A DNA stretch of 64,000 nt, from positions 5,797 through 69,796 of the forward strand of contig JAFXCN010000020.1 of assembly GCA_017521465.1 (NCBI GenBank), read 5' to 3'. Made by a program: the position numbers and the translations under genes. Positions within the stretch are counted from its first letter, which is position 1. Each line of letters opens with the position of its first letter. Below are positions 15,117-58,182 of the stretch, piece by piece. The stretch is from Clostridia bacterium (lineage in GTDB: Bacteria > Bacillota > Clostridia > TANB77 > UBA1234). Below the pieces are notes generated by a model. That model did not search any database and had not been told where the DNA came from. It was given only the letters and a program-made list of their open reading frames with translations.

Positions 15117-15190
15117 TGGAGGCGCCAATCAGATTTGAACTGATGATCAGGCTTTTGCAGAGCCGTGCCTTACCACTTGGCCATGGCGCC
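15117..15190 (-). tRNA. tRNA-Cys (anticodon GCA)
   Basis: Minus-strand sequence GGCGCCATGGCCAAGTGGTAAGGCACGGCTCTGCAAAAGCCTGATCATCAGTTCAAATCTGATTGGCGCCTCCA folds as a cloverleaf. Anticodon loop is CTGCAAA; T-loop is TTCAAAT; 3' end is CCA. Confidence 0.85.
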
Positions 15191-15615: not shown

Positions 15616-16824
15616 ATGAGAAAAATGATTTGTTTAATATTAAGTGTTATGTTTGTATTTATACCAATAATTTCTATAGCCGCTTCTAATATTGATGCTA
15701 TACCAGTGTGGTCAGAAACAATCGAAGTTTTTAATCAAATACAAAATAAAGTTGACTTAAAACTTAATTCTGAAGCTGCGATATTAATGGATGAAGATAC
15801 GGGAACAATTTTATATACGAAAAATGAGCATAAAAAGTTAAGGCCGGCAAGTGTTACAAAGGTAATGACATTGCTTTTAATAATGGAAGCATTAGATGCA
15901 GGAACAATATCTTTAACTGACAAAGTACCATGTAGTGCAAGAGCAAGTGCAATGGGAGGTTCGCAAATATGGCTTGATGAGACAGAAGAGCTAACTGTAA
16001 ATGAAATGCTAAAAGCAATATGTATTGTTTCAGCAAATGATTGCTGTGTTGCGATGGCAGAGTTACTTGCAGGAAGCGAGGAAGCGTTTGTTGAAAAGAT
16101 GAATGCAAGAGCAAAAGAATTAGGTATGAATGATACAACATTTAAGAACTGTCATGGAATAGATGAAGATGGACACGTTACATCTGCTTACGATATAGCA
16201 ATCATGTCAAGAGAACTATCTTATAAGCATCCAGAAATACACGAATACACAAAAATCTGGATGGACACATTAAGAGATGGAAAATCAGAGTTAGTAAATA
16301 CAAATAAATTAATAAGATTTTATAGCGGAGCAACAGGTTTAAAAACTGGCTCAACATCACTTGCGTTATTTAATCTATCTGCAACTGCAACAAGAAATGA
16401 TATGAAATTAATTGCGGTAGTAATGAAAGGTCCAACAAGTCAGCAAAGATTTGATGATGCAAAAGTTTTGTTAGATTATGGATTTGCAAACTATGCATCA
16501 ATTTGTGTAAATAAAAAAGGTGACGTAATTCAAAGTATAGAAATACCAAAATCAAAACAAGGAAAAGTAGACTTCGTAATAGCTGAAGATTATAGTATAT
16601 TAGTGAATAAAGCGGATAAAGATAAAATAGAAAAAGAAATTTTAATAGATGAAAATATAGCAGCACCGCTTGAGTATTTACAAAAAGTAGGAACGATAAG
16701 TTATAAATTAAACGGAGAAATAATTGCTGAAGGAAAAATAGTATCAGGAAGTAAAGTAGAAGAGAAAAGATGGGATGATTATTTTGCAGAGGTGAGTGGA
16801 AAGTTTTTTAAGGTAGGGAGATGA
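15616..16824 (+). CDS. D-alanyl-D-alanine carboxypeptidase (peptidase S11; DacF/DacB-like)
   Basis: Signal peptide; active-site SVTK (SxxK), SAN and KTG motifs. Confidence 0.9.
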   Translation: MRKMICLILSVMFVFIPIISIAASNIDAIPVWSETIEVFNQIQNKVDLKLNSEAAILMDEDTGTILYTKNEHKKLRPASVTKVMTLLLIMEALDAGTISLTDKVPCSARASAMGGSQIWLDETEELTVNEMLKAICIVSANDCCVAMAELLAGSEEAFVEKMNARAKELGMNDTTFKNCHGIDEDGHVTSAYDIAIMSRELSYKHPEIHEYTKIWMDTLRDGKSELVNTNKLIRFYSGATGLKTGSTSLALFNLSATATRNDMKLIAVVMKGPTSQQRFDDAKVLLDYGFANYASICVNKKGDVIQSIEIPKSKQGKVDFVIAEDYSILVNKADKDKIEKEILIDENIAAPLEYLQKVGTISYKLNGEIIAEGKIVSGSKVEEKRWDDYFAEVSGKFFKVGR

Positions 16825-16840: not shown

Positions 16841-16881
16841 TGCTTGTGTGTGTTGACATAAAAACACAAGCGTGATATAAT
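16841..16881 (+). promoter_or_regulatory. consensus sigma-A promoter flanked by inverted repeat
   Basis: TTGACA (16853-16858), 17-bp spacer, TATAAT (16876-16881). GCTTGTGTG / CACAAGCG inverted repeat brackets the -35. Confidence 0.6.
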
Positions 16882-17385: not shown

Positions 17386-17417
17386 TATCAAAGAACTCTG
17401 AAATTCAGGGTTCTTTT
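17386..17417 (+). terminator. rho-independent terminator
   Basis: AGAACTCTGAA-ATT-CAGGGTTCT followed by TTTTTT. Confidence 0.6.
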
Positions 17418-17469
17418 TTGTTGTATAAGCTCGTTTGTTTTGATATAATATCGCTACGGAGGTATAAGT

Positions 17470-20400
17470 ATGAAAAAGAAAATTATAATAAGCTTTATAT
17501 TGATATGTATAATTGTGGCGTTAATAGCCTTTTTTATACATAACCAAAATAATCATTCAATTGATACAAAATTTGTAAATTATCCTACATTTACAGTAAC
17601 AGCTACAAGCGAACATAACAATCTTATAGATATTGATACATCATTTAACTTGAAAGCAAGTGAGGGAACAACACTTGAATTAGTTCAATCTTGTTTTTCT
17701 ATTACGCCAAAAGTTGAATATGAAATAAATGAAATCTCAAAAGATTATTATGCCTTAACATTAAAAGAAGAATTGGAAGCAGATAAAATTTACAATATTG
17801 AATATAAGACGGATAAGGCGCCATATAAATGGTCATTTCAAACAGAAAAGAAATTTAATGTTGCAAACTTTTATCCAGGAAATAAAGAATATGTATTGCC
17901 ATCAACTGTAATTGAGATAGATTTTACATATATTCCAGATGACAATATTAGAGAATTTTTTGCTATTTCTCCAAATGTCGAAGGTAAATTCTTATTTGAT
18001 GAAAGAAGAATAAGATTTGTTCCAAATGGAAAGTTAGCGTTAGCCACTACATATGAAGTGACAATATTAGAAGGATATGGTAATAAAGAAAATGACGAAA
18101 AAACAACAGAACAATCATTTAGTTTTTCAACTACTATATCTGAAAAATATGGAACTATGTCAAATCTTAAAAAAATAGATTTTGATGCGGATAAATATGC
18201 TTTTGGTGAAAATCAAGATATTTATATCAGTCATTATAATTATTATGACGACAATATCACTAATTACAAAATAGCTATATATCAATATAAAAATTCTGTT
18301 GATTTTGTAGAGGATTTAATGGCCAAAGAAGTTTATGGTAATTATCCAGAATTAAAACCAGTAGACTTAACAAGATTGGATAAAATTGATGAAAAAGAAT
18401 TGCTAGCTACTGATGTTGTTGAATATGAATATTCGTGGAAAAAAGCTGTACCAATAGATGCTAATCTGTCAGAAGGATATTATATTGTTGTGATAACTAT
18501 TAATGGAATTGATTACTACATGCCGCTTCAAATAAACAATACTATTGCAGTTACACAATATTTTGATGATAGATTGATGGTGTGGGTTCATGATTTAAAA
18601 ACACAAAAACCATTTGCAAATGCAAAAATAAAGATTGATGATATAGACATGGGAGTGACGAATAAAGAAGGTTATTGCGTGCTAACTGGAATTGAACTTC
18701 CGGAAGATAAAGATTTATTAGTACAAATATATGCAGAAAACAGAACTACGATATATGATGTTATAACTTCTCATAATTATTGGTCGGGTGCAACGTCAGA
18801 ATATGATAATACATATATTAAATTTGATAGAGATACATTTAAGACGGGAGAGATACTTAATACTTGGGGATTTATAAAAGATAGACGAAACATTGAAACA
18901 AAAGAATGTACATTAACAATAAAATCATCTTCAGAAGGAGCTGTTTTTGAAGAAAGGAAAATTACACTTGATGAGTTTGGAACTTTTAAGGCTGCTTTTG
19001 ATTTAACTAATTATACAAGTGGTTCTTATTTTTTATCTGTCTATGCGAACGGAAACCAAACTAGTGAAAAATGGTTTGAAATAAGAGATTATGAAACAAA
19101 TTCTTATGATGTATCTATGTCGTTAGATAAGAAAAATGTAAGAGCTGGTGAAAAAATAACGTGTTCTTTAAATGTAAAGCTATTTGATGGAACACCATTA
19201 GAAAATATACGTTATAATGCCAAAATAGAAATGGGCGATAAAGTAACAACAAAAGAAATAACAACAGATGCAAATGGAGATGCAAGCTTCGAGATAGATA
19301 CATCAATATATTATACATATAACAATATTATATATGGTTATGTCCGTTTGACTCCAATTGGTATAGAAGATCAAAATTATCTTGCTAAATCTTTTTCAGT
19401 ATATCCTCATGAAGAAACCTTTGAGACAAATGGGAAATATATTGATAAAGAGAAAATGTATGAATTTAATATAGAAACTTATTATAATGATTACACTAAT
19501 ATGGATGAAGTGAAAAAAGGTGCATTAACAAATAGAACGGGAAAAGTAATGCTTACTAGATATAGAAAGGAAAAAGTGGTTACATCAACTTATTTTGATG
19601 AAAATACAAAAACAATGAAAGAAAACTATAAAATAGTTAAACACTTTGACGGATTTGAAGAACTTGAATACACAACTGTCGATGGAAAAGCTACTGTTAG
19701 ATATGCATCGCCATATGCTACAAGAGACGAAGGTGTAGTCGAATATACAGCATCGTTCTATTCTGAAAAGGATTGGAAAAATATAAGTGATAGATGGACA
19801 TATGTTAGTGAAGAATATGACGCTAACGAAAATCAAGTAGATTTCTTAATGAATAATTACTATCTAGATAGTGATGCGGAACCATATGGATGCAAAGTTG
19901 GACAAGAAATAAATTTGAAAGTTGTTAATGTTACTGATGATAAAACACCAGAAAATGTATATGTAATGTACGTTTTAAAATCTGCGAAAGGCACTGAAAT
20001 AATATACACAGATAAAGCTGAATATAAACTGAAATTTGAAAAAGAATTTGGAGCAGATATTACTATTGAGGGATTTGTATTTGATGGAACAACAATAAGA
20101 GCTTTAGGTGATTACTACTATGACACTCAATATAGATTTTCTCTTGCTGATGAAGAATTAGATATGCAAGTTGAAGTTGAGTTTGATAAAGAGCACTATA
20201 AACCAGGCGATACAGCTAAATTAAAAATCGTAACAAAAGTTGATGATAATCCTGTAAAAGCGGCGGTCAACTTAAGTGCAGTTAATAAGGAATACCTTGC
20301 AGCAAATCCGCAATATAATGGTGATATACTGTATGCATTGCATAATTATTATAATTTTTACATTAAAGCAGAAAGTTTCACTCATACAATACTTTCTTCA

Positions 20401-22236
20401 TCGTTTGAAGGTGGCGGTGGAGGCGGTGGCGATGGAGTTCGTATAGACTTTGCAACCACAGCATTATTTGACACTGTTTATACCGATGAAAATGGTGTTG
20501 CAGAATATGAAGTAAAACTTCCGGACAACATTACTACATGGAATTTGAATGTAGAAGCTACAACTAAAGATTATAGAGCTACATCTATAGATAAAGATAT
20601 TGTTGTTACCTTGCCATTCTTTTCAACTGCAGTTATGAATGAAAAATATTTGGTGGGAGAAACACCAAGTGTAAGCATTAGAAGTAATGGTACAGATGTA
20701 AAAACAGGTGATAAAGTTACATATGATGTGACTATAACGGATACAAATAATAAGATTACGAAATTTACTAAAGAATCTGAAATAGGAAAATATTTAAATA
20801 TTTCGTTGGGCAAACTTGAAAGGGGAGAATATACTCTTCTCGTGAAAGCTAGTTGTAATGGGTTGACAGATGCTTTCGAAAGAACTATAGAAGCGGTTAA
20901 CACTTTACAAGAAACAACAAATACAACACCATGTGATTTGATTAAAGGCGAAAAGATTAGTGTGGATAAGGGAAGCGGTGTAGTATATCTATATAACGCA
21001 GATATAGAAAAAATCTTTGATGATTTAGTGAAATTATCAATGTTACCAAGAGTTAGAAACGATCAAAAGGTTATATCATATATGACAGACAATCTTTGGA
21101 GAAAATTGCAAAATATAGATGCGCCAGCTGATAAGCCATATATAAATACATATAATGGAATAGAATTAATTGAAGATTTTTCGAATAAAGATTCATTATT
21201 AACAGCCAAAATTGTTTCGACAGGATATTTTGCAGAATCGAAATCACAAGATATCATAAAATATTTTAAAAATATTATTAAAAACGATGATATTGATATT
21301 AGAGAAAAACTATATGCATATTGGGGATTGGCAGCATTAAAAGAGCCAGTGTTAAATGATATAAAATTACTTGATTCAGAATTTGCATATATGGATAGTT
21401 ACGAAAAAGCTATAGTTGGTTTGGCATATGCTGATATAGGCGATTATGTGAGTGCAAACAAAATTTTTGATGAACTAATTTTGCTTGCTGATCAAGCGTC
21501 AAACGAAACATATGAGTATATAACAATGTTAGCATTTAAACTAAATAGGCAAGAAAGAGAAAACTTATATGATAAATATCTTTCGCTAAATAGAGAATCA
21601 GAATATTCGAATTTTGTAAAATTATTTAGAATACAAAACGAAGTGCAAAATAATGTTGAAGATGCGTATGTAAATTTAGAAGTAAATGGCGAAGAAAAGA
21701 AAATTGATATTAAAGGAATCAATATAGAAAGCTTTGCATTTACATATAAAGATGAGATAAAAATAAAAGACAAGAGCGACAATCTTCTTTCAAGATTTAG
21801 AAGAACAGAAGAAATAACTTCTAAAAATGCACCAAAAATAAATGCGATTTCGAAAACATATATAGTTAATGGTAAAGAAAGTAATACTTTTAAAATGGGA
21901 GATATGGTTACTGTTACAATAAAACTTGATTATAATGAATTGGCAAAAGAAAATATACCATATCTATATACGGTAGAAGATGTAATGCCAAACTGTTTCA
22001 AATATTCTTATGAAGAAGATTATGACTATGAACATTTAAAAGTAGATTCGCCATATAAAAAAGACGGACAAAAATTATATTTCTATGTTCATAAATGTAA
22101 CGAAGGTGAACAATACATCTCATATACTGCTATAGCAACTGCGAAAGGTGAATTCGTTTCAGATGGGGTAATACTTAAAAATACAGAAAACAAAGTAATA
22201 GATTATCACAAAATAGATAATATAATTGTAGAATAA
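17470..22236 (+). CDS. alpha-2-macroglobulin-family (MG-domain) giant protein, N-terminally membrane anchored
   Basis: 1588 aa with N-terminal TM. A2M-family signature FATTALFDTVYTDENG...LPDNITTWNLNVEATT...LPFFSTAVMNEKYLVGE. A run of 7 Gly precedes it. Confidence 0.6.
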   Translation: MKKKIIISFILICIIVALIAFFIHNQNNHSIDTKFVNYPTFTVTATSEHNNLIDIDTSFNLKASEGTTLELVQSCFSITPKVEYEINEISKDYYALTLKEELEADKIYNIEYKTDKAPYKWSFQTEKKFNVANFYPGNKEYVLPSTVIEIDFTYIPDDNIREFFAISPNVEGKFLFDERRIRFVPNGKLALATTYEVTILEGYGNKENDEKTTEQSFSFSTTISEKYGTMSNLKKIDFDADKYAFGENQDIYISHYNYYDDNITNYKIAIYQYKNSVDFVEDLMAKEVYGNYPELKPVDLTRLDKIDEKELLATDVVEYEYSWKKAVPIDANLSEGYYIVVITINGIDYYMPLQINNTIAVTQYFDDRLMVWVHDLKTQKPFANAKIKIDDIDMGVTNKEGYCVLTGIELPEDKDLLVQIYAENRTTIYDVITSHNYWSGATSEYDNTYIKFDRDTFKTGEILNTWGFIKDRRNIETKECTLTIKSSSEGAVFEERKITLDEFGTFKAAFDLTNYTSGSYFLSVYANGNQTSEKWFEIRDYETNSYDVSMSLDKKNVRAGEKITCSLNVKLFDGTPLENIRYNAKIEMGDKVTTKEITTDANGDASFEIDTSIYYTYNNIIYGYVRLTPIGIEDQNYLAKSFSVYPHEETFETNGKYIDKEKMYEFNIETYYNDYTNMDEVKKGALTNRTGKVMLTRYRKEKVVTSTYFDENTKTMKENYKIVKHFDGFEELEYTTVDGKATVRYASPYATRDEGVVEYTASFYSEKDWKNISDRWTYVSEEYDANENQVDFLMNNYYLDSDAEPYGCKVGQEINLKVVNVTDDKTPENVYVMYVLKSAKGTEIIYTDKAEYKLKFEKEFGADITIEGFVFDGTTIRALGDYYYDTQYRFSLADEELDMQVEVEFDKEHYKPGDTAKLKIVTKVDDNPVKAAVNLSAVNKEYLAANPQYNGDILYALHNYYNFYIKAESFTHTILSSSFEGGGGGGGDGVRIDFATTALFDTVYTDENGVAEYEVKLPDNITTWNLNVEATTKDYRATSIDKDIVVTLPFFSTAVMNEKYLVGETPSVSIRSNGTDVKTGDKVTYDVTITDTNNKITKFTKESEIGKYLNISLGKLERGEYTLLVKASCNGLTDAFERTIEAVNTLQETTNTTPCDLIKGEKISVDKGSGVVYLYNADIEKIFDDLVKLSMLPRVRNDQKVISYMTDNLWRKLQNIDAPADKPYINTYNGIELIEDFSNKDSLLTAKIVSTGYFAESKSQDIIKYFKNIIKNDDIDIREKLYAYWGLAALKEPVLNDIKLLDSEFAYMDSYEKAIVGLAYADIGDYVSANKIFDELILLADQASNETYEYITMLAFKLNRQERENLYDKYLSLNRESEYSNFVKLFRIQNEVQNNVEDAYVNLEVNGEEKKIDIKGINIESFAFTYKDEIKIKDKSDNLLSRFRRTEEITSKNAPKINAISKTYIVNGKESNTFKMGDMVTVTIKLDYNELAKENIPYLYTVEDVMPNCFKYSYEEDYDYEHLKVDSPYKKDGQKLYFYVHKCNEGEQYISYTAIATAKGEFVSDGVILKNTENKVIDYHKIDNIIVE

Positions 22237-22246
22237 TTGGAAAATA

Positions 22247-22285
22247 AAACCTGTTTGTATCGATTGATACATGCAGGTTTTTTAT
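22247..22285 (+). terminator. rho-independent terminator
   Basis: AAACCTG...CAGGTT followed by TTTTAT. Confidence 0.55.
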
Positions 22286-22536
22286 ATACTAGAAAGCTTA
22301 CTTTTTCTAGTATATAAAAACACTTATTTTAAGCGTGAGATTTTCTCTTTTTAGTCGAAAACTCACGAGGGTCGAAAGACAGAAAATGTACAATTTTCTG
22401 CCTTTTTTTGAATGTTACAAAAATGTTACATAACTATTACAGTTGTGTTAAAAATGGTTACATTTTGTTGAAGTTTGACGAGCCGTGTGTTATCTTATAA
22501 ATATATGTAACTATGTTATAAGGAGTGGATTGAATT
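22286..22536 (+). promoter_or_regulatory. regulatory region of the Tad-like operon: palindrome, attenuator-like hairpin, phased (T)GTTACA direct repeats, promoter
   Basis: TATACTAGAAA..TTTCTAGTATA palindrome (22286-22316). CAGAAAAT-GTACA-ATTTTCTG hairpin followed by T7 (22372-22402). GTTACA at 22410 and 22421, GGTTACA at 22467. TTGACG at 22485 with -10 TATAAA/TAAATA. Confidence 0.5.
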
Positions 22537-23862
22537 ATGATGTTAGTAGGACCTATGAAGAAAAAAATGGTAACAACGGTTATTCTTGTTGTTATTATAT
22601 TGACAGTAATATTTGGGGTTATAGGCTTTTTATTGTTGAGTGGTAAGCAAAATCAAATTGATGAATTAATGAAAAAAGCAGAGGTAGTAGAAAGATATGT
22701 GTTTACAGAGAACTTTCCTGCTGGTCACGTAATTGATGGTGATGATTTGACCTTAGCTGTTGTAAAAGCGGAGAGCACACCAGATAATTCATACAGTTTT
22801 CAAACTGTTGTAACTCCTGGCAATAGAGAGGAAATATACCAATATACAGGAACAACATACAAAACTGGTGAACTTGTAAATACGTTAGAGTTGCTTATAG
22901 GAAGAACATTAAAAATTAATGCATCAAGAAAAACAACATTAACTGATGAAATGCTTGTTCCAATCGATGAAACACCTTCAGACGATTTGAGACTTGAAGA
23001 ATTTACAATGATTAATCTTCCAAGTGATGCGGTTGATGGTGAATATATTGATGTTAGAATAATGTTCCCTACCGGTGAAGACTTTACAGTTTTACTTGGA
23101 AAGAAAATAGAAAAGTATACAGATAGTACAATTTTCTTAAAACTTACTGAAGATGAAATTTTAACTATGGGAAGTGCTATTGTTGAAGCTTATATGTATG
23201 AAGGAACAAAAATATATGCAACAAAATATGTAGATCCTTCTAATCAATTATATAGTTATAAAAAAATAGACTATGTTGCTAAATATAAGGCAGCTGTAGC
23301 TAGTTTGATAGAATCAAAAGAAGAAAAGAATCTTGAAGCGATTATTGAAAAATTCAGAACTGCTAGTCCAGAAGAATATGAAGCCTTATTAGCAGAATAT
23401 CCAGATACATATAGAGAAGAACTTGCAAAAAGACATTCAAATGAAATTAAAGTAATGGAAAGAGACGTTGAAATCAATGAGATTGCACAATACATTGGAT
23501 TGAACGAATATGAAACTGAAGAACTAAGAACAGCAATCGATGAAAAGAATGAAGATGTAATTTCAAAATATGAAAACAAAATTGTAACATCTAAGAAACA
23601 ATTAGCAAGAACTTATCCTGTAAAACCAGAAGTTTTATCTGTAATAAAATCTAATCCGAATATTCTAAAAGAAATTAAGGATACTTTTGATGTTACAGCT
23701 CAAATATCAGGCGAAGTTCAAAAATTTGATCCAACATTATATGGAGATGAAAATAGTATTCAAGAAGCATATGAAAAATATGTAGAAAACGTAAAAAATG
23801 AACTTCAAACACAAAAAGATGAAAGAGTAAAATATTTAAATTCATTAATTGCAGGAGAATAA
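22537..23862 (+). CDS. CpaB/RcpC-like pilus assembly protein with long C-terminal helical extension
   Basis: N-terminal TM. SAF-like segment VVERYVFTENFPAGHVIDGDDL. CpaB-like beta-rich region (YIDVRIMFPTGEDFTVLL). C-terminal 200 aa is a charged helical extension. Confidence 0.5.
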   Translation: MMLVGPMKKKMVTTVILVVIILTVIFGVIGFLLLSGKQNQIDELMKKAEVVERYVFTENFPAGHVIDGDDLTLAVVKAESTPDNSYSFQTVVTPGNREEIYQYTGTTYKTGELVNTLELLIGRTLKINASRKTTLTDEMLVPIDETPSDDLRLEEFTMINLPSDAVDGEYIDVRIMFPTGEDFTVLLGKKIEKYTDSTIFLKLTEDEILTMGSAIVEAYMYEGTKIYATKYVDPSNQLYSYKKIDYVAKYKAAVASLIESKEEKNLEAIIEKFRTASPEEYEALLAEYPDTYREELAKRHSNEIKVMERDVEINEIAQYIGLNEYETEELRTAIDEKNEDVISKYENKIVTSKKQLARTYPVKPEVLSVIKSNPNILKEIKDTFDVTAQISGEVQKFDPTLYGDENSIQEAYEKYVENVKNELQTQKDERVKYLNSLIAGE

Positions 23863-23874
23863 AAATAGGAGGAT

Positions 23875-24630
23875 ATGCAAATGAAAAGTATAGGATTTGT
23901 TGGCGAAATGGATAAAACAGGATTACTTTTATGCGTTGGAAAAATGATAGCCTCGCTAGGTGCAAAAGTAATGTTTGTTGATGCTACAAAAGCACAAAAA
24001 ACTAGATATGTAGTTCCACTTGTTATGGATAATGAAACACAAGAACAATATATTACACAACATGATGGAGTTGAAGTTGCTGTAGGATTTAACAATATAC
24101 TTGAGCTAAAAAAATACCTATTATCGAAAGGCGAAGATTTTTCAGAATATGAATATATCTTAATAGATAGTGATAATGAAGAAATGTGTGAAGAATATGA
24201 TATGAAAAGTGCAAACAAATTATTTTTTGTTACAACCTTTGACAAAATGCATTTGGCTAAAGGTTTAGAATTATTGAAATTTGTATGCGCATCAAAAAGA
24301 AGAGAAGATCCAAACGGTTCAGTTAATATTGAAAAAATATTATCATATACGCAAACGAATATTAAAGCAGTTGATGATAGATATATAGAAAGACTAACAG
24401 AAAACTTACCTATTAATTGGGCAACAGAAAAAATAGTTGTATCATATGACGAAGGTGATTTATCAGCCTTTATTCAAAATCAATACAGAAACAAAATAGA
24501 ATTTAGAGATATGACACCACAAACAAAAATAGGTATTATTGATGTTGTTTCTGTGGTTACAGGCGAAGAAAAAACAAGACTTAAAAAAGTTTTAAAAAGT
24601 ATTGAAAAAAATGCAAGATTTATTGGGTAA
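23875..24630 (+). CDS. ParA/MinD-fold protein with degenerate Walker A (TadZ/CpaE-like pseudo-ATPase)
   Basis: IGFVGEMDKTG occupies the place of the deviant Walker A KGGVGKTT. YILIDSD is Walker-B-like. Confidence 0.45.
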   Translation: MQMKSIGFVGEMDKTGLLLCVGKMIASLGAKVMFVDATKAQKTRYVVPLVMDNETQEQYITQHDGVEVAVGFNNILELKKYLLSKGEDFSEYEYILIDSDNEEMCEEYDMKSANKLFFVTTFDKMHLAKGLELLKFVCASKRREDPNGSVNIEKILSYTQTNIKAVDDRYIERLTENLPINWATEKIVVSYDEGDLSAFIQNQYRNKIEFRDMTPQTKIGIIDVVSVVTGEEKTRLKKVLKSIEKNARFIG

Positions 24631-24654
24631 TAGATTGAAAGGGGAGTAACAAAA

Positions 24655-25488
24655 ATGCCAATAGTATCATTTTGGAGTACAGTAGAATCTACTCAAACTT
24701 CTACAACATCTACTGCTGTAGCTGTAGCAAATGCTATAGCTACTAGACCAGATGTAGGATATAAAACACTATTAATGCAAACACACTATAATAATTTTGA
24801 TATGGAAACTTCTTATTACAACATGAATAAAATGTCTTCAAAAGGAAGTCTTGATATCGCAGATACAGGAATAGACGCGTTAGATAGATTGTTAAGAAGT
24901 AATAAATTAACACCTGAAAATATACCAAACTATGCAAAACCAGTTTTAAAAGGCAAATTAGAATTGCTTTATGGTACATTTAAAAATGATAGAGATTCAT
25001 ATGAAAGAGTCTTAGAAACAATGCCTATGATAGTCGACTATGCAAGTCAACTATATGACATGGTATTTGTAGATTTGAATAGAGGTTATGGTAATGCAGC
25101 TATGACCCAAATTCTTCAAAAATCTGATTTAATAGTTTTAACTATGAGCCAGAAAACAGAGGTATTGAAAAAATTATTTAAAGATGTAGAAGATTTAAAA
25201 ATCTTCAAAGAAAAACCAGTAATTTCAGTTATAGGTAGATATGATAGATTCTCAAAATATAATTCAAAGAATATTGCTAGAACATTTAACTATAAGAAAC
25301 CTATATACTGTATACCATACAATACACAATTCTTTGATGCTTGTAATGAAGGAAAAGCTTTGAATTTCTTCGTTGAAAATATGAATGCAGATATTGCAAC
25401 AGATAGAAATGGATATTTTATTTCAGAGGTAAATAAGATATCAAATCAAATTATGGAAGAATTAAAATCGAAATTAGTTGAAAGATAA
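24655..25488 (+). CDS. ParA/MinD-fold protein lacking a P-loop (second TadZ/CpaE-like)
   Basis: IVSFWSTVESTQTSTTSTAVAVANAIA replaces the P-loop. MVFVDLNRGYGN and LIVLTMSQ segments follow the ParA architecture. Confidence 0.45.
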   Translation: MPIVSFWSTVESTQTSTTSTAVAVANAIATRPDVGYKTLLMQTHYNNFDMETSYYNMNKMSSKGSLDIADTGIDALDRLLRSNKLTPENIPNYAKPVLKGKLELLYGTFKNDRDSYERVLETMPMIVDYASQLYDMVFVDLNRGYGNAAMTQILQKSDLIVLTMSQKTEVLKKLFKDVEDLKIFKEKPVISVIGRYDRFSKYNSKNIARTFNYKKPIYCIPYNTQFFDACNEGKALNFFVENMNADIATDRNGYFISEVNKISNQIMEELKSKLVER

Positions 25489-25512
25489 AATGAAAAGAGG
25501 TGATACTCTAAT

Positions 25513-27432
25513 ATGTTTATTAACTATACATTGATAGGCATTTTAATATTTGGTGCAATATTTTTCTTTGCATATATCTTCGTGAAAAAAGATAATACTA
25601 TGTTACCTAAAAACGAACGTGATAGCAGAATGTATACTGTTGAGCAAATGACTAAATTTATTAAAGCGAGACTTGACGAAATAACAAGAACAAACCTTTA
25701 CGATATAGGATTATCTGAAGAAGAATTGAAAAGAAGAAAAAGCAAAAAATATGAACTAAAGAAAGCCTTAAAAGGTTGTACATATGGAGATGTAAACGAT
25801 AAAAAATATATTAAAGAGTTGATATTTGATTTATTACATAGAGAATATGGAGTGAATCAAGTAAATATCACTAATGCTATAGATTTTGATAACGTTGATA
25901 AACTTACAACAATTGATAAGTTTGACATATTGTTATATATGTACAAATTACAATATGGATATAATGCATTAACAGAATTAATAGTGAAATATAACTTAGA
26001 TGATATAAAAACGGTATATGGTTCAACAACTCCATCATATGTAATTACGCCAGAAGAAATTGATGATATTTTTGAAAAAGAATATGATTATCTTTCTTTT
26101 GAAGATAGATTAAATATTTTATCTCAAAGAATATATCAAAATTATAAAGGATTTAGTGTAATTGATGAAATAAGAGATATGAACATAGATGGTATCTCTG
26201 GAGGTGTTTCTGGTCTTCCAGAATCATTTATGTATCAAGTTGCACAACTTGGTGATTATATTAAGCAAACTCAAGAAAAAACTATACCAAGAGCTTACGA
26301 TAGTGTATGGATTTTCTTTAGAGGTAAATCAATCCAAATGGCTTGTTTGTCATTTGGCTCATATGATGAATTAAAGAGAGTATGTCAAAATATTTATAAA
26401 TACAATAATCCAGGACAATTATCAGATACAAATGGATATAAGATTAATGAAATGAAAGACGGTTCCCGTGTCGTTGTTGTTAGACCAAGTATGTCTGAAT
26501 CATGGGCGTTCTTTGTAAGAAAGTTCGACACACCAAATGCCGTTCTTGAAAACTTGATCAAGCAACCAGGAAAAGAATTTGTAATACCAATGCTAAAATT
26601 CTTGGTAAAAGGTGCCAGAGTTACAGCTCTTACTGGTGAACAAGGTTGTGGTAAAACAACAATGCTTATGGCGATGATAAAATATATTTATCCAACTCTA
26701 AACATAAGAGTTCAAGAAACTGCATTCGAGTTACACTTAAGAAAAGTTTATCCAAATAGAAACATATTAACATTTAGAGAGACGGATACAGTTTCAGGAC
26801 AAGAAGGACTTGACCTTCAAAAGAAAACTGACGGTGCTGTTAACATCCTTGGAGAGGTTGCTACTGACGCGGTTGCTGCTTGGATGATTCAGATGGCCCA
26901 AGTTGCTTCAAAATTTACAATCTTTACTCACCATGCTAAAACATTTGAAAATTTAATACTATCTCTTCGTAACTCATTATTGAAGATTGGTATGTTTAAC
27001 AATGAAAAAGTTGCTGAAATACAGGTAGTAAACGTTATGAACTTCGAAGTACATCTAAAAAGAGGTTTCGATGGTTCGAGATTTATAGAAAGAATAACAG
27101 AATGTATTCCGATAAAGGAAAAAAATCCATATACATTTGATCACAGAAATGAAACAACATTAGAAGGGAAATTTGATAAATTTATGGATAATGCAACTCA
27201 CTATTTCCAAAAGATTACAGAAACAGAAACATTCAAAGCTGTTAATATAATTGAATTCCAAGATGGTGAGTATGTAATAAAAAATAGAATTTCAGATGAA
27301 AACATTGCATTAATGAAAGAAAACATGTCTGATGAAGACCAAAAGCTTTTCAAAGAATATTTGGATGAATATTTTGGTGGTGCAGGTGGTTATGTAGCTT
27401 CTAATACAAATAGAAGAATAGTAATTGATTAA
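25513..27432 (+). CDS. CpaF/TadA/VirB11-family secretion ATPase with N-terminal TM anchor and long N-domain
   Basis: Walker A TGEQGCGKTT. Asp/Glu boxes NILGEVATDAV. His box FTHHAKT. N-terminal hydrophobic segment LIGILIFGAIFFFAYIFV. Confidence 0.75.
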   Translation: MFINYTLIGILIFGAIFFFAYIFVKKDNTMLPKNERDSRMYTVEQMTKFIKARLDEITRTNLYDIGLSEEELKRRKSKKYELKKALKGCTYGDVNDKKYIKELIFDLLHREYGVNQVNITNAIDFDNVDKLTTIDKFDILLYMYKLQYGYNALTELIVKYNLDDIKTVYGSTTPSYVITPEEIDDIFEKEYDYLSFEDRLNILSQRIYQNYKGFSVIDEIRDMNIDGISGGVSGLPESFMYQVAQLGDYIKQTQEKTIPRAYDSVWIFFRGKSIQMACLSFGSYDELKRVCQNIYKYNNPGQLSDTNGYKINEMKDGSRVVVVRPSMSESWAFFVRKFDTPNAVLENLIKQPGKEFVIPMLKFLVKGARVTALTGEQGCGKTTMLMAMIKYIYPTLNIRVQETAFELHLRKVYPNRNILTFRETDTVSGQEGLDLQKKTDGAVNILGEVATDAVAAWMIQMAQVASKFTIFTHHAKTFENLILSLRNSLLKIGMFNNEKVAEIQVVNVMNFEVHLKRGFDGSRFIERITECIPIKEKNPYTFDHRNETTLEGKFDKFMDNATHYFQKITETETFKAVNIIEFQDGEYVIKNRISDENIALMKENMSDEDQKLFKEYLDEYFGGAGGYVASNTNRRIVID

Positions 27433-27448
27433 TTAAGGGAGGATTGAT

Positions 27449-37071: not shown

Positions 37072-37419
37072 TTATTTCCAAACATTATATACCGTTTTAC
37101 CATCTTTGTTTTTTATTAAGTTGTAAACACCATCAAGTGTGTTTACATTAATAGAATTTTCATCATTAAAAATTTCAATTGTATGATTTTGATTTAATCC
37201 AAATGGATTTTGACCATCTGGGAAATATGATTTTGTTTCAACAATAATTTTATCATCATAAATATAATAAGTTTTGTCAGGACCATCTACATGTGACATA
37301 TTGTTTGTTAATATTAAATTATAATCTTCTGGTATGGTATAAGTTAATTTCCAAATTATAAAACTTAATATTATAAGTAGTACTATAACAGATATTGTTA
37401 TTATTATTTTCTTTTTCAT
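37072..37419 (-). CDS. hypothetical membrane-anchored protein
   Basis: N-terminal TM followed by a 90-aa beta-rich domain. Confidence 0.4.
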   Translation of the reverse strand: MKKKIIITISVIVLLIILSFIIWKLTYTIPEDYNLILTNNMSHVDGPDKTYYIYDDKIIVETKSYFPDGQNPFGLNQNHTIEIFNDENSINVNTLDGVYNLIKNKDGKTVYNVWK

Positions 37420-37453
37420 ATATTATGTAACCTTTCTGAAATTAAAATATTAT

Positions 37454-37792
37454 TTATAAATCCGTATTTTTATTGTTATTTTTTTTACTTTTAATATATA
37501 TTATTATTTTTGCACAAATAGTTATAAGTAGCACGATTACAGAAAGTATTGCACTACCGAAGCTGAATAAAACTTCACCCAAATATGATAATCCAGGCAT
37601 AAAGCCATAGCCAGGCAAGTTCTCATAATATTGCCATAATGTTATAGAAATTATAATAGAAAAAGTTTCTAATAAAAATACTTTTACCCAGCTTTTCGTT
37701 TCTTTCTTTTTTATAGCTTTTACTAATAAAACTATTTGTCCTATAAATATTACTAAATATAATATTAATACAAGTAAAGTTTCAATAGACAT
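37454..37792 (-). CDS. hypothetical 3-TM membrane protein
   Basis: Hydrophobic segments; no motif recognised. Confidence 0.35.
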   Translation of the reverse strand: MSIETLLVLILYLVIFIGQIVLLVKAIKKKETKSWVKVFLLETFSIIISITLWQYYENLPGYGFMPGLSYLGEVLFSFGSAILSVIVLLITICAKIIIYIKSKKNNNKNTDL

Positions 37793-37894
37793 TTTCTCTC
37801 CTCCGATAATTTTGAATTCATTACTCTATAAATAGTATACAATAAAATTATTTTCTCAACAATAAAAAAGACCGCAAAATGCGGTCGATTTATA

Positions 37895-38578
37895 TTAATC
37901 ACTACTTGACTTGAGTCTAAGTACATGCAAGAAAATATTAAGAAAGTCCAGATAAATTTCGAGTGCATAAAAGATTGCACATACATTTTCATTTTCGTTG
38001 AGCTTATAAGAGTTAGAATGATTCTTAATCTTATAAATATCGTATGCAGTAACGGCAACAAAAATTAGGATTGCAACTGCAGATACGACAAAGGAATAAA
38101 GACTATTATTTACGAAAATATCAACTATCAATGCAATAAGCAAGCCAATCAGAAGAATGGTCAAAATGCTACCCCAGGAGGAAAGATCCTTTTTGGTAAC
38201 AAAACCGTAAATTGCTGCAACAGCAAAGACTCCAGCTGCGATAAAGAATGCAGAATAAATATCAGGCAGTTCGTAAGCGCGGAAAATTATCGAAAGAACT
38301 ATACCTTCAAGTGCTGTATAGGTTATAAAGTAAAAATATGCAACGGGAGATGTAATACGACTAATAGTAAAACAAATAATGAATGTATATACAACAAGTC
38401 CAATGTTAAGTCCTATAAGCAAACCATTTGAAAGTACTGCGCCAGAATTAGCAATGCTATATGCAGTAATGCCAGAAATCAAAAGGCCCACAAACATCCA
38501 AAGAAATACTTTAGTAAACAATGAGCTAGATTCCGATTCATGTCGGACTTGATGGCTGTAAGGGCGGTAGTTTGTCAT
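37895..38578 (-). CDS. Bax-inhibitor-1/YccA-family membrane protein
   Basis: 7-TM protein. GC-rich hairpin terminator GACCGCATTTTGCGGTC at 37871-37895. Confidence 0.75.
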   Translation of the reverse strand: MTNYRPYSHQVRHESESSSLFTKVFLWMFVGLLISGITAYSIANSGAVLSNGLLIGLNIGLVVYTFIICFTISRITSPVAYFYFITYTALEGIVLSIIFRAYELPDIYSAFFIAAGVFAVAAIYGFVTKKDLSSWGSILTILLIGLLIALIVDIFVNNSLYSFVVSAVAILIFVAVTAYDIYKIKNHSNSYKLNENENVCAIFYALEIYLDFLNIFLHVLRLKSSSD

Positions 38579-38744
38579 CTTTGCTCCTCCTTTTTTGTTT
38601 CGTGTTCAACTTTAATTATGTCAAGTGAAATCTAAGGGCCATTCAATAGAATCATCCTTCTTTCTATTTAAATTTCGATTGAATTATATCAAATATCATG
38701 TTTTATGTCAAATTATAGAACTTATCTCCGAGCAAAAATGTCCG

Positions 38745-38860
38745 CTGGCAGGATTTTTTCGTCGGACACAAAACACATGATTTTGGACAATTTATGTCCG
38801 ACGTAAAGTATTCGCTGGGCGGACGTTTGTGTCCGACGAAAAGTGCTTGCCTCGTTTTGT
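38745..38860. repeat. GTCGGACA-family repeat copies in mixed orientation forming a 19-bp inverted repeat
   Basis: TTTTTCGTCGGACACAAAA (38766-38784) and TTTGTGTCCGACGAAAAGT (38836-38854) are inverted. Internal copy ATGTCCGACGTAAAGTATTCGCTGGGCGG. Confidence 0.8.
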
Positions 38861-38893
38861 GCAAAATGTTATCATTATTGTATGGAGGTTTCT

Positions 38894-39913
38894 ATGATTA
38901 GTTATGATGATTTGCCAGAGATTTTAGTTAATTATATGAATTATAATGCTAACTTGAATAGGTCTAAAAATTCAATTAATGAGTATCGTTATGATCTTAC
39001 TAGATTTCTGAAGTATATTAAAGTTTTGAAATTAAAAATAAAGACGAATTCTTTGGATGAGGTTGATATTAATGATGTTGACGAGAAGCTTTTGAATAAA
39101 GTTACTTTGAATGATTTGTATGCGTACATGACTTATTTGCGTGATGAATGTGGTAATTCTGCTACTTCTCGTGCTCGTAAGGTTGCTAGCATTAAAGGTT
39201 TTTTTAGATATTTGCATGTTAAGGCTAAACTTATTGATGATAATCCAGCTAAAGAATTAGAAAGTCCTAAAGTTGGTAAACGTTTGCCGAAGTATTTATC
39301 GCTTACAGAAAGTCAAGAATTGCTTGATAAAGCCAAGTCTGGTGATATTCATATTAGAAGTAAACGCGGAAAATCAGAACAAGATCTTAGTGAGAATCAA
39401 AAGAAGTTATCGGCTCGTGATTTTGCTATGATTACTTTATTTTTAAATTGTGGCATGCGTCTTTCAGAACTTGTTGGAATTAATTTAGAACATATTAAAT
39501 TTGATGAATGCAATTTGACTGTTATAGGAAAAGGAAATAAAGAAAGAACAGTCTACTTAAATAAAGCTTGTATAAATGCTCTTAATGAATATTTAAAAGT
39601 TAGACCTGATATTGATGGCAAAGATAAAAACGCTCTTTTCTTGAGTGAAAGAAAAAAACGTATAAGCAATAGAATGGTTCAAACTACTATTTCGGAATAT
39701 CTTAAAGCGGTTGGCTTAAGTGGTTATTCAACACATAAATTAAGACATACTGCGGCAACGCTTATGTATCAAAATGGTGTTGATGTAAGAGCGCTTCAAG
39801 AAATATTAGGACATGAAAGTATTGGTACAACTGAAATATATACACATGTAGATAATTATCAAATAAGACAAGCGATAGAAAACAATCCGCTTGCTGATTA
39901 TAAAGCAAAATAA
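38894..39913 (+). CDS. tyrosine recombinase, XerD/XerC-like
   Basis: C-terminal catalytic motifs HKLRHTAAT...LGHESIGTTEIYTH. ATG 38894 behind GGAGG. Hairpin terminator 39914-39942. Confidence 0.85.
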   Translation: MISYDDLPEILVNYMNYNANLNRSKNSINEYRYDLTRFLKYIKVLKLKIKTNSLDEVDINDVDEKLLNKVTLNDLYAYMTYLRDECGNSATSRARKVASIKGFFRYLHVKAKLIDDNPAKELESPKVGKRLPKYLSLTESQELLDKAKSGDIHIRSKRGKSEQDLSENQKKLSARDFAMITLFLNCGMRLSELVGINLEHIKFDECNLTVIGKGNKERTVYLNKACINALNEYLKVRPDIDGKDKNALFLSERKKRISNRMVQTTISEYLKAVGLSGYSTHKLRHTAATLMYQNGVDVRALQEILGHESIGTTEIYTHVDNYQIRQAIENNPLADYKAK

Positions 39914-39973
39914 AACTACGGAGAAAACTCCGTAGTTTTTTATACCAAAGAAAAGTTAAATGTATACAAATAT

Positions 39974-40246
39974 TTATACTGTAGGAATTAGTAGCTCCTG
40001 TCCTATGTAAATATCTGAATTGTTTAAATTATTTATTTTCTTTATTTCAAAAATATTTTCATTTATATTTCCATCAAGCGATTTTGCAATGCTCCAAAGT
40101 GTATCTCCATTAGAAACTATAACTTTTTCATATGTTGGTTCTTGATATGAAAAAACTCCTCCGAAAATACAATTAAATATAGAAAACATTAATATAAATA
40201 TTATTGACATTGATATTATAAATCTTGGCATACTCTTTATTCTCAT
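39974..40246 (-). CDS. LysM-domain membrane protein
   Basis: Signal-anchor plus LysM motif VSNGDTLWSIAKSL...IYIGQELLIP. Confidence 0.6.
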   Translation of the reverse strand: MRIKSMPRFIISMSIIFILMFSIFNCIFGGVFSYQEPTYEKVIVSNGDTLWSIAKSLDGNINENIFEIKKINNLNNSDIYIGQELLIPTV

Positions 40247-40445
40247 ATATAACACTCCTTCATCTCTAAAAGAACTCTTGTTCTTATCTATGATTAAATT
40301 ATATGCGAACATTTATTCTTTGTCAACAATTTTCGATAAAAAAACGCAAAAAAATGTTCGCCTTGTTTTGAAGTGAAGAACTAATAATAAAAGGTAAATA
40401 GTAAACGCCAAAAAACGATTGAGATTTCTCTCAATCGTTTTTGTC

Positions 40446-41654
40446 TTATTTTACAATATTCAATGTTTCTCTTGCGATGATGATTTCTTCGTTTGTTGCG
40501 ATTACGAACATTTTAACTTTAGAATCTGGTGTGCTAACGATTCCTTCATATTGTTCATCTCCAAGATGAGAATCATCATACTTAATTCCAAATTCTTCTA
40601 AACCTTCAATGCAGGCTTTTACAACATCAGGATTATGTTCTCCTATTCCGCCTTCAAATGTGATGCAATCGATATGACCAAGAACAGCCATGTATGCGCC
40701 AATGTATTTTCTAACTCTGTAAGCTAATACATCAAGTGCCATTGCAGCTCTTTCATCACCTTGATCACGTAATAATCTTAAGTCACGGATATCACCTGTT
40801 TTGCCTGAAAGTGCAAGCAATCCAGATTCTTTATTTAAAGTATTAAGCATTTGGTGAATGTCCATATTCTCTCTTTCCATAACGAATTCAAGAACAGCAG
40901 GATCGATATCACCGCATCTAGTACCCATAACAAGACCTTCAAGTGGAGTGAATCCCATTGATGTGTCTACACATTTACCATTTTTAACAGCTGTAATACT
41001 TGAGCCATTACCAAGATGGCAAGAGATCAAGTTAACTTCTGATAAGTCTTTACCAAGTAATTTTGCAGCTTCTTCAGTTACAAATTGGTGAGACATACCA
41101 TGAGCACCATATCTTCTAACACCATGTTTTTCATACCAATCATATTTAACGCCATACATATATGCTCTTTCAGGCATTGTTTGATGGAATGATGTGTCAA
41201 ATACCATTACTTGTGGAATTCCTGGCATTGTCTTTGTACAAGCAGAAACACCTTGAAGCGCTGGTGGATTGTGAAGTGGTGCGTATGGAATAGATTTTTC
41301 ATTGAATGTTTTTAATACTTCATCTGTAACTAATGTAGTCTTGTTGAAGAAAGGACCAGCATTAACTATTCTATGCCCAATCGCAGATATTTCTTTTAAT
41401 TCAGAAATAACTCCTACTTCTTTATCTAATAAGTAACGAACAACAGCTTCGAAAGCGGCTGTGTGATCTGGTAAAGGAAGTTCCTCAACCAATTTTCCAC
41501 TTTTTCCTTTATATTCGATAAAAGGTTTTCCAATTTCACCTTCTGCTGCACCGATACGGTCACATTTTCCTTTTGCAAGTACGCTTTCGTTTTCCATATC
41601 GATTAATTGATACTTAAGCGATGAGCTACCGCAGTTTACAACTAATACTTTCAT
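40446..41654 (-). CDS. ackA: acetate kinase
   Basis: N-terminal VLVVNCGSSSLKYQL and full-length acetokinase similarity. Terminator hairpin 40405-40440. Confidence 0.95.
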   Translation of the reverse strand: MKVLVVNCGSSSLKYQLIDMENESVLAKGKCDRIGAAEGEIGKPFIEYKGKSGKLVEELPLPDHTAAFEAVVRYLLDKEVGVISELKEISAIGHRIVNAGPFFNKTTLVTDEVLKTFNEKSIPYAPLHNPPALQGVSACTKTMPGIPQVMVFDTSFHQTMPERAYMYGVKYDWYEKHGVRRYGAHGMSHQFVTEEAAKLLGKDLSEVNLISCHLGNGSSITAVKNGKCVDTSMGFTPLEGLVMGTRCGDIDPAVLEFVMERENMDIHQMLNTLNKESGLLALSGKTGDIRDLRLLRDQGDERAAMALDVLAYRVRKYIGAYMAVLGHIDCITFEGGIGEHNPDVVKACIEGLEEFGIKYDDSHLGDEQYEGIVSTPDSKVKMFVIATNEEIIIARETLNIVK

Positions 41655-41971
41655 ATCCTAAATCCTCCCTGTTAATTAGTTTTAATTCGAGGAACATTCT
41701 ACCACAAATGACATAAAATATCAACAAAAAGACAAACAAAAATGTTAAGATTTAATTTGCAATAAGAAAAATGAAAATCTAAAAATCAAAGATTTTTGAT
41801 TTTCATATGTCGAGCTCCGCTCGACTTTAATATGAAGTTATTCTTGTATAATAGGAAAGAATATAAGTATAATTTTGGCTTGTAACGCTTGTTACACACA
41901 AGCTACAATCAAAAATTGTCGATAACTTTCCTATTATATAAAAAAGAGCAGATTGCTCTGCTCTAATTATC

Positions 41972-42772
41972 TTACTTTCCTCTACAGCCATTAACCCTGA
42001 GCTGGTAGTATATTGCATTCTTGGAAACTCCAAAGTATCGTGCCAGTTCTGTAACATTCCGCTGACCATTATGCCACATATCACAAAGAGCTTTAATCTC
42101 ATTTTCACGCAAACGCTCGCCAGTCTTGGGCCAGTCTTCTTTACTGGACATTTTGGATTGAGAAATCGGTTCGGCACTAGGCCGAGAAGTATTGCCATCT
42201 GTGGTAACAGTAGCCATTTGCTTCATGGATGCACGCTTCTGCTTCTTCTCTTCAGATGAACTGCACTCGGGAATTTTAGATGCCCAACGGCATACAGTTG
42301 CAATACTGACTTCAAATTCAGTAGCAATGTCAGCAATAGGCAGACAGTCGTTCCACATCTGTACGAACCGTTCCAGCTTGCCGGCAAGCTTGTCAGGAAT
42401 AAGCTGTTTAGCACCGATGCGCTTGAACGCTTTCCTCCTGCCATATCCATTCTTATAAGCATAGTTATATACGGAATTCTTCGTGACACCAAGTTGATCG
42501 GCCATCGTCTCGGCAGAGACACCCTCATTCCAGAGCTTCTCGAACAGCTCTTTGTCGATGCGCTTCCTGGTGGACTTTTTGGGCGCTTCAGAAGCCGCTT
42601 CTTCACGAATTTCAACTACCGTATTATCCTTTTTAGAAACATTCACATTAGGTTCAGCAGTGGTAGCATCATCACGATACACCCTGAAAACTACTTCGGT
42701 CGGGCTTGCTTGGATGAAATCAACCTTGATGCCTTCTTCGGCAACAAACCGGAAAGAGAACTCTTTCATTTT
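41972..42772 (-). CDS. GC-rich foreign gene: protein with three helix-turn-helix-like repeats
   Basis: Coding GC about 50% against a 28-30% background. Three copies of a pattern like LW(N/H)xG..V..(I/M)A..(F/L)GV(T/S)KN(S/A)(V/I)Y. Own terminator AGAGCAGAGCAATCTGCTCT followed by T7 at 41944-41968 (minus). Confidence 0.5.
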   Translation of the reverse strand, partial: KMKEFSFRFVAEEGIKVDFIQASPTEVVFRVYRDDATTAEPNVNVSKKDNTVVEIREEAASEAPKKSTRKRIDKELFEKLWNEGVSAETMADQLGVTKNSVYNYAYKNGYGRRKAFKRIGAKQLIPDKLAGKLERFVQMWNDCLPIADIATEFEVSIATVCRWASKIPECSSSEEKKQKRASMKQMATVTTDGNTSRPSAEPISQSKMSSKEDWPKTGERLRENEIKALCDMWHNGQRNVTELARYFGVSKNAIYYQLRVNGCRGK

Positions 42773-45700: not shown

Positions 45701-45707
45701 TTATAAA

Positions 45708-58175: not shown

Positions 58176-58182
58176 TAAGTAA

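Follow-up and report, generated by a model that had tools for sequence, protein, structure and literature searches.

A thioester-less alpha-2-macroglobulin homolog with a predicted N-terminal membrane anchor in a Clostridia genome

We analyzed a 64,000-nucleotide stretch of a Clostridia bacterium assembly (GCA_017521465.1, contig JAFXCN010000020.1), hereafter called the window, and in particular an uninterrupted open reading frame (ORF) of 1,588 codons that begins with ATG and lies on the + strand at 17470 to 22236. The encoded protein of 1,588 amino acids is 100% identical to the NCBI entry [quoted passage not shown] a name that records no function. We are very confident that this protein is a thioester-less homolog of alpha-2-macroglobulin (A2M). 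It belongs to a large, uncharacterized branch of self-anchored bacterial A2Ms in which Arg replaces the thioester Cys and which is related to, but distinct from, the type II proteins described below.

A preliminary description of the window, made from the sequence alone, had read the protein as a member of the A2M family, and four independent lines of evidence (Pfam, profile-profile alignment, AlphaFold and Foldseek) agree with that reading. Three Pfam families were matched above their gathering scores: MG2 at residues 448 to 537 (41.6 bits; cut-off, 32.8), A2M_BRD at 808 to 943 (30.7 bits; cut-off, 22.7), and A2M at 997 to 1053 (27.2 bits; cut-off, 21). MG4, bMG3, bMG10, and Big_5 fell just under threshold. 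The signature segments named in the preliminary description were located within the Pfam A2M match, with FATTALFD at residue 994, LPDNITTWNL at residue 1017, and LPFFSTAVMNEKYLVGE at residue 1048. The Pfam scan of the 1,588-residue protein returned no TED match, and an NCBIfam scan returned no meaningful match. HMMER aligned residues of MG7 with residues 729 to 795 of human A2M. Alignment of a profile of the ten closest homologs with a profile of eight thioester-bearing relatives by hhalign gave a probability of 100% and an E value of 1.2e-41, and it spanned residues 37 to 1568.

Sequence searches of the PDB were marginal, with a single sequence and with a profile alike (E values of 0.02 to 0.2 to human A2M), and because of this the structure was modelled with AlphaFold, in two overlapping halves from an alignment of 34 homologs. 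Residues 800 to 1588 were modelled with a mean predicted local distance difference test (pLDDT) score of 84.8, and residues 30 to 830, which are all beta, with a score of 81.8. When the models were compared with the PDB using Foldseek, the top matches of both halves were ECAM of E. coli (5a42) and SaA2M of Salmonella (4u48), with E values of 3.6e-32 and 5.5e-30 for the C-terminal half and 3.2e-23 and 5.9e-22 for the N-terminal half. These were followed by TEP1, CD109, A2ML1, C3, C4, C5, and human A2M. The architecture of the superfamily is present: an MG array, a BRD inserted in MG6, and then MG7 were recognized by Pfam, the models, and Foldseek, and the C-terminal order of CUB, helical TED, and MG8 was recognized in the model and by hhalign, with the TED equivalent shortened. 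With no TED match in Pfam, it is the hhalign alignment together with the model that relates the helical domain to TED. Structure prediction and profile alignment allowed the MG, BRD, MG7, CUB, TED-equivalent, and MG8 domains to be delimited, and the domain analysis did not reduce the protein to Big or Ig-like repeats unrelated to A2M.

The domains are arranged as follows, all on the + strand. About seven consecutive beta-sandwich domains of Ig or MG type occupy residues ~41 to 776 (17590 to 19797) according to AlphaFold, Pfam, and Foldseek, and they include a Big_5-like domain (residues 148 to 221), a bMG3-like domain (358 to 434), MG2 (446 to 539), and an MG4-like domain (546 to 645). MG6 with its inserted bait-region domain covers residues 808 to 961 (19891 to 20352); it corresponds to Pfam A2M_BRD and was modelled as a beta-sandwich with two short helices. 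A predicted disordered bait loop, residues 962 to 989 (20353 to 20436), ends in Gly7-Asp-Gly at residues 981 to 989 (20410 to 20436) and leads into MG7, the Pfam "A2M" domain, at residues 990 to 1058 (20437 to 20643), which bears the signature LPDNITTW. The first part of a CUB-like beta domain (residues ~1059 to 1176, 20644 to 20997; AlphaFold and Foldseek, borders approximate) precedes the shortened, degenerate TED equivalent (residues 1177 to 1395, 20998 to 21654), which is helical and consists of eleven helices with pLDDT mostly above 85. The second part of the CUB (residues ~1399 to 1448) and an MG8/bMG10-like domain (residues 1460 to 1588) complete the protein (21664 to 22233); both are beta domains in the model, and a weak Pfam bMG10 match lies at residues 1471 to 1563.

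The preliminary description had noted that the canonical CxEQ motif was missing, and indeed C.EQ occurs nowhere in the 1,588 residues. In the register given by both MAFFT and hhalign, the CxEQ-equivalent site is R1196-N-D-Q1199 (21055 to 21066), where R1196, D1198, and Q1199 stand against the Cys, Glu, and Gln of thioester-bearing relatives. A first homolog search yielded 45 proteins, 35 of which align with the protein over most of its length at 19 to 85% identity. CxEQ was absent from all 35 of these clade members. Nine of the ten more distant proteins carried both CxEQ and a Pfam TED, 190 to 205 residues past PDNxTTW. An exhaustive HMMER search was then made with the C-terminal half against 1.84 billion cluster representatives, and 124 aligned representatives drawn from the best 150 were used for statistics at the site. 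The Cys column was occupied by Arg in 116 of them (94%), by Thr in five, and by Ser, Tyr, and a gap in one each; Cys was found in none. Position +2 was Asp or Glu in 122 of the 124, and position +3 was Gln in 85. Since these columns are strongly conserved across the representatives, the motif G-x-R-x-[D/E]-Q, which replaces G-C-x-E-Q, is on sequence grounds a family signature and not random decay. Because a family-wide conserved Arg occupies the Cys position, no thioester can form in this protein. The motif marks the reactive members of the superfamily and not its fold, and C5, MagD, and YfaS are without it too. The helical domain also is ~70 residues shorter than the canonical TED of thioester-bearing relatives, with large deletions in the hhalign alignment.

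CNEGEQ, at residues 1543 to 1548 (22096 to 22113), had been put forward as the only candidate for a displaced thioester, and this we reject. In homologs, C1543 is replaced by Tyr, Ser, Thr, or a gap; the Cys is not conserved even at 47 to 50% identity, and the motif lies in the C-terminal MG8 beta domain, not in the helical domain that holds the true equivalent.

The Gly7 run, which had been suggested to act as a flexible bait or hinge, comprises residues 981 to 987 (20410 to 20430). It is encoded by a mixture of GGT, GGC, and GGA codons and so is not a slippage tract, and the chance expectation of such runs at the 4.7% Gly content of the protein is ~7.5e-7. The run is kept in 10 of 10 homologs of 47 to 85% identity. 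More broadly, 101 of 123 representatives, as well as several thioester-bearing relatives, are Gly rich (at least 4 of 9 residues) ahead of MG7. Residues 962 to 987 (163 to 188 of the model) form the sole stretch of the C-terminal model with a pLDDT below 50, directly before MG7. Thus, the run ends the only disordered loop of this half, and it adjoins V990-R991, which HMMER aligns with the residues following the bait region of human A2M. The bait or hinge proposal fits these observations: in the model, the loop of residues 962 to 989 sits at the expected place of an A2M bait, and its sensitivity to proteases is a prediction. The bait of ECAM (E. coli K-12 yfhM, L012; residues ~955 to 970) also ends in a Gly/Asp-rich segment, RFGGDGDELKRGG. 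The YfaS bait has no Gly run, unlike that of the window protein. To judge from these sequences, bacterial A2Ms may long have had a Gly-rich bait end, which would then not be peculiar to this protein.

The mean Kyte-Doolittle hydropathy over 19 residues exceeds 1.6 only at residues ~5 to 23, a single hydrophobic segment that matches the N-terminal transmembrane anchor of the preliminary description. This helix (residues 5 to 23, 17482 to 17538) follows MKKK and is predicted to be an uncleaved signal-anchor with N-in/C-out topology. In the N terminus, MKKKIIISFILICIIVALIAFFI, Cys13 lies in the middle of the helix after Leu-Ile and not after [ASG], and the hydrophobic stretch runs on past it; a reading of this N-terminal sequence found neither a lipobox nor a clear AxA cleavage site. 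An N-terminal membrane helix was present in 97 of 105 full-length family representatives, 48 of which have a cytoplasmic extension of 12 to 130 residues before it. The uncleaved helix would tether the protein to the cytoplasmic membrane, on its outer face.

The family is large. The C-terminal half gave 2,198 HMMER hits at E values of at most 1e-3, 1,119 at 1e-10, and 399 at 1e-30, counted as clusters at 50% identity. A scan of genome contigs returned two loci only, both in Clostridia metagenome-assembled genomes (MAGs) from gut or rumen samples. Bacterial A2Ms have been described as Gram-negative periplasmic proteins of two classes: type I, with a thioester and a lipobox and paired with pbpC, and type II, with no thioester and encoded in the six-gene mag/yfa operon of Gram-negative bacteria (PMC5764988, PMC3735191). 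ECAM and SaA2M need the covalent bond made by the thioester to trap proteases, and MagD traps TEV protease noncovalently after bait cleavage (PMC5764988). The terms Gram-positive and Firmicutes are absent from both of these papers and from a 2026 review (PMC12939704), and a full-text literature search combining bacterial A2M, thioester, and Gram-positive found nothing.

A hidden Markov model of the clade scored the E. coli K-12 proteins YfaS and ECAM at 187.0 and 84.7 bits, respectively, and the clade is placed nearer type II because YfaS scores so far above ECAM. Like MagD of P. aeruginosa and YfaS of E. coli (COG2373), the window protein has no CxEQ, has the full MG-BRD-MG7-CUB-TED-like-MG8 layout with a bait, and is associated, by prediction, with the cytoplasmic membrane. 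MagD and YfaS are soluble periplasmic proteins of Gram-negative bacteria that have a cleaved signal peptide and are tethered via the partner MagB. The host of the window protein is represented by a Clostridia MAG and is presumed to be monoderm, the protein has its own hydrophobic helix with no evident cleavage site, and its gene is monocistronic with no mag/yfa partners nearby: none of the partner families DUF2135, DUF2300, DUF1175, and DUF2138 was found in 20 neighboring ORFs. The degenerate site of YfaS reads G-G-V-I-N, in contrast to the conserved R-x-[D/E]-Q of the clade.

ECAM (YfhM) and SaA2M resemble the protein in being the best structural match for both halves, in the extra N-terminal domains typical of bacterial members, and in N-terminal membrane tethering. 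The CLEQ (residues 1187 to 1190), the lipobox (LALAGC), and the immediately downstream pbpC of ECAM are missing, and no transglycosylase or transpeptidase gene, hence no PBP1c gene, adjoins the A2M gene, which is flanked on its upstream side by an HD-domain gene and on its downstream side by a CpaB-like gene. The eukaryotic thioester-containing proteins (TEPs) and complement share the superfamily fold (Foldseek E values of at most 1e-20 for human A2M, A2ML1, CD109, TEP1, C3, C4, and C5) and become active when a flexible segment immediately preceding MG7 is cut, but they are only 10 to 16% identical to the window protein, are secreted or glycosylphosphatidylinositol anchored and lack an anchoring N-terminal helix, and have a full-length TED. 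Complement C5 illustrates that a thioester is not indispensable for the scaffold to function.

By analogy, we lean toward the view that the protein is a surface-tethered, noncovalent protease trap of the MagD kind. An attacking endopeptidase would cut the exposed loop of residues 962 to 989, the two halves would remain associated and rearrange, and the protease would be held noncovalently and sterically blocked beside the membrane, so that envelope proteins would be protected. The analysis itself establishes the fold, the order of the domains, the lost thioester, the disordered loop, the membrane helix, the size of the family, and the isolation of the gene; the topology, the cut in the loop, and the trapping are inferred. 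MagD provides the experimental precedent for noncovalent trapping without a thioester (PMC5764988). Several points weigh against this view. Because the helical domain is ~70 residues short, a rearrangement of the ECAM/MagD type may not apply. It is also conceivable that signal peptidase removes the N-terminal helix. Bait regions usually are hypervariable, and poly-Gly is a poor substrate for most endopeptidases; in the close clade, column identity is 59% for residues 962 to 980 and 78% for the Gly run, compared with 63% overall, which is higher than would be expected of a promiscuous bait. Finally, the stability of MagD requires its operon partners MagA, MagB, and MagF (PMC5764988), and their Pfam families were found in none of the neighbors of this gene.

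The A2M gene is its own transcription unit, since terminators lie on both sides of it. Upstream, the HD-domain gene ends in an intrinsic terminator at 17390 to 17416 (+), with a 12-bp stem and a T-run (-13.8 kcal/mol; z, -4.3). Between this terminator and the start codon, 17441 to 17463 (+) contain a putative extended -10 element, TGATATAAT (17441 to 17449), and the Shine-Dalgarno sequence GGAGG (17458 to 17462), nine bases 5' of the ATG. A consensus promoter scan listed no full -35/-10 pair in this interval, and the promoter assignment is read from the sequence. Directly after the stop codon lies a second intrinsic terminator at 22246 to 22287 (+), ending in UUUUUU (-18.3 kcal/mol; z, -5.8; more stable than all 200 shuffles), and an equivalent hairpin follows the A2M gene in related loci L001, L003, L006, and L007. 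No Rfam RNA element was found near the gene. The preliminary description also had pointed out a neighboring DacF-like gene. Such a gene (Peptidase_S11 plus PBP5_C) is present two genes upstream, at 15616 to 16824; the HD-domain gene that intervenes has a perfect TTGACA-17-TATAAT promoter of its own (16853 to 16881).

What else might such a protein do? It could act at the surface without inhibiting proteases, for example as an adhesin, a spacer, or a shield, and merely reuse the macroglobulin scaffold; the lost thioester and the shrunken TED would then be signs that trapping, too, has been lost. The missing thioester and the short helical domain without a Pfam TED would suit this, as would the rapid evolution of the whole protein, which is only 47 to 50% identical where the housekeeping asparaginyl-tRNA synthetase (AsnRS) is 80% identical, in the manner of exposed surface proteins. 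The most conserved part, moreover, is the set of N-terminal Ig-like (Big_5-type) domains, at 78%, with MG7 next. We nevertheless regard this possibility as unlikely. The complete A2M order of BRD, disordered loop, CUB, TED equivalent, and MG8 is kept over hundreds of 50%-identity clusters, which argues for selection on the whole device; the remnant of the thioester site, R-x-[D/E]-Q, is strongly conserved; and MagD, which also is thioester-less, still traps protease (PMC5764988). A role as an extracytoplasmic protease sensor, in which bait cleavage signals to the cytoplasm, seems highly improbable for the window protein. It draws on two relatives, P0034 and P0035, whose genes overlap the end of an upstream extracytoplasmic-function (ECF) sigma-70 gene by 4 to 8 nucleotides and whose 30- to 48-residue cytoplasmic N terminus before the helix is laid out as in anti-sigma factors. 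The window protein, however, has only four residues (MKKK) before its helix, too short a segment for sigma factor binding; no sigma factor gene adjoins its gene; and Pfam revealed no anti-sigma domain, not even in the proteins P0034 and P0035.

Two further alternatives concern the neighbors. The protein could be an accessory of the adjoining Tad-like filament machine (22537 to 32923), for example a wall-spanning or filament-protecting partner. The same block, which contains a CpaB-like protein, a CpaF-like ATPase (E value of 1e-8 to CpaF), a polytopic membrane protein, and pilin-like proteins, comes immediately after the A2M gene both in the window and in every locus with at least 47% identity (L001/L002, L003, L006, and L007), despite different upstream genes and rearranged genomes. 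This adjacency is missing from all seven more distant relatives examined (P0046, P0048, P0022, P0028, P0032, P0034, and P0035); P0046 is followed by DprA, and P0048 lies between WecG and a sigma factor. Because the genomes that share it are fairly close (AsnRS 80%), inherited synteny suffices to explain it, and a strong terminator stands between the gene and the block, both here and in each of the four related loci that were examined. We consider such a role improbable. As for cotranscription, the terminator at 22246 to 22287 led us to reject the A2M gene as the first gene of a Tad-like operon, and there is no family-wide linkage. Slightly less probable again is a partnership in which the protein and the DacF-like D,D-carboxypeptidase would do in a monoderm cell what the "defend and repair" pair of ECAM and PBP1c does elsewhere. 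In L003 and L006, as in the window, the DacF-like gene stands two genes before the A2M gene, and envelope genes occur near other members: WecG in L010 and L014, PspC/LiaF in L008, and Amidase_3, Polysacc_deac_1, and a transglycosylase in L005. However, the unrelated gene in between varies (HD_4 in the window, SSB-like in L003) and, in the window, brings its own promoter and terminator. A DacF-like gene is missing from two of five related contexts (three of six loci: L001, L002, and L007, with NrdD/NrdG upstream in L001/L002), and a peptidoglycan synthase adjoins the A2M gene in no locus. The DacF-like gene itself stands as noted earlier, but its role as a functional partner is unsupported. The family has no universal partner, and the DacF-like and Tad-like adjacencies are lineage-level synteny.

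The more unusual material of the family is found in relatives outside the window. In ~12 of 123 representatives, the Gly-rich bait that links A2M_BRD to MG7 is interrupted, exactly within its Gly run, by a Hint/BIL-type domain of ~130 to 165 amino acids. These include P0011, P0021, P0025, P0026, P0028 (L008, 8001 to 13574), and P0029, with a Pfam PT-HINT match of E 4e-16 in P0028. The junctions read GG|CF...HN|[D/E/Q]KGG, and the residue after HN is never Cys, Ser, or Thr. From its sequence, the Hint domain would cut (or splice) its own A2M chain at the point of normal activation by proteases, so that the activating cut would be autocatalytic. A literature search found no link between macroglobulins and Hint/BIL domains. 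In a second sub-branch, comprising P0035 (L005, 9475 to 14749), P0034 (L010, 7447 to 12779), and also P0031 and P0033, the A2M-like genes show the overlap of 4 to 8 nucleotides with the 3' end of an ECF sigma-70 gene and encode the 30- to 48-residue cytoplasmic N terminus described above; in such a sigma/anti-sigma pair, the A2M body would be an extracytoplasmic sensor.

The insertion of Hint/BIL domains in the Gly run of some relatives, together with the suitability of conserved oligo-Gly for glycyl-glycine endopeptidases, suggests a more speculative reading. Oligo-Gly is the natural substrate of these enzymes, among them the lysostaphin-type M23 wall-lytic bacteriocins. The clade might be a third functional class of bacterial A2M, in monoderm Firmicutes and in bacteria of the candidate phyla radiation (CPR), that is self-anchored, has Arg for Cys, and is activated at a conserved Gly-rich site in place of a promiscuous bait; the window protein might then be a dedicated trap for glycyl-glycine endopeptidases and not a broad-spectrum inhibitor. 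We judge these two proposals, taken jointly, to be rather improbable.

The Tad-like block comprises ten genes on the + strand, none of which has a Pfam match above threshold, and weak but coherent matches point to a very divergent type IV filament system. It encodes a CpaB-like protein (22537 to 23862; TIGR03177, E 1.2e-3); two proteins of ~250 to 277 amino acids, possibly ParA/TadZ-like; a CpaF/TadA-like ATPase (25513 to 27432; Walker A motif GEQGCGKTT; TIGR03819, E 3e-7; PDB CpaF 8rkd, E 1e-8); membrane proteins of 786 amino acids (polytopic) and 396 amino acids; and four small pilin-like proteins (29956 to 31722) in which a polar N terminus (MDNASKAL, MDNSQKAI, or MEDSLAIV) is followed by a hydrophobic helix. 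A terminator lies at 32929 to 32963. Across related loci the ATPase is 87 to 88% identical, and the A2M, CpaB-like, and pilin-like proteins are only 33 to 58% identical. Just past the block, a convergent gene (32938 to 33747, -) encodes a VanW-domain protein of 269 amino acids (Pfam E 1e-46) with a lipoprotein-like FFLSAC. Beyond it, a T-box leader at 34494 to 34686 (+; Rfam, 109.5 bits) precedes the gene for an AsnRS/AspRS-like aminoacyl-tRNA synthetase of class II (34745 to 36058, +). The ortholog of this synthetase (80% identical) lies upstream of the DacF-like gene in L003 and L006, indicating rearrangement around a conserved A2M-Tad pair.

The surroundings in the window are ordinary chromosome of low GC content (~30%), with genes for RecA, ScpA, MurJ, Pta/Ack, and tRNA synthetases and an RNase P RNA. 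The latter is of class A (45705 to 46046, -; 294 bits), and a tRNA gene is found at 15120 to 15190 (-). GC skew and gene orientation flip at ~32000 to 42000: cumulative skew peaks at ~38 to 40 kb, and the genes run on the + strand up to the switch and on the - strand beyond it, as is typical of a replication terminus. A tyrosine recombinase gene (Phage_integrase plus N-terminal SAM-like; XerC/D-like) lies at 38843 to 39913. GC content rises locally to 0.41 at 58 to 60 kb (58001 to 60000), around an ORF at 58447 to 59193.

The present analysis makes it possible to rename the NCBI entry, which now reads "hypothetical protein." If these proteins trap proteases, they would constitute a layer of envelope defense in CPR bacteria and in anaerobes of the gut and rumen, and nature would have provided in them an experiment on the working of an A2M scaffold that has no covalent chemistry to rely on.

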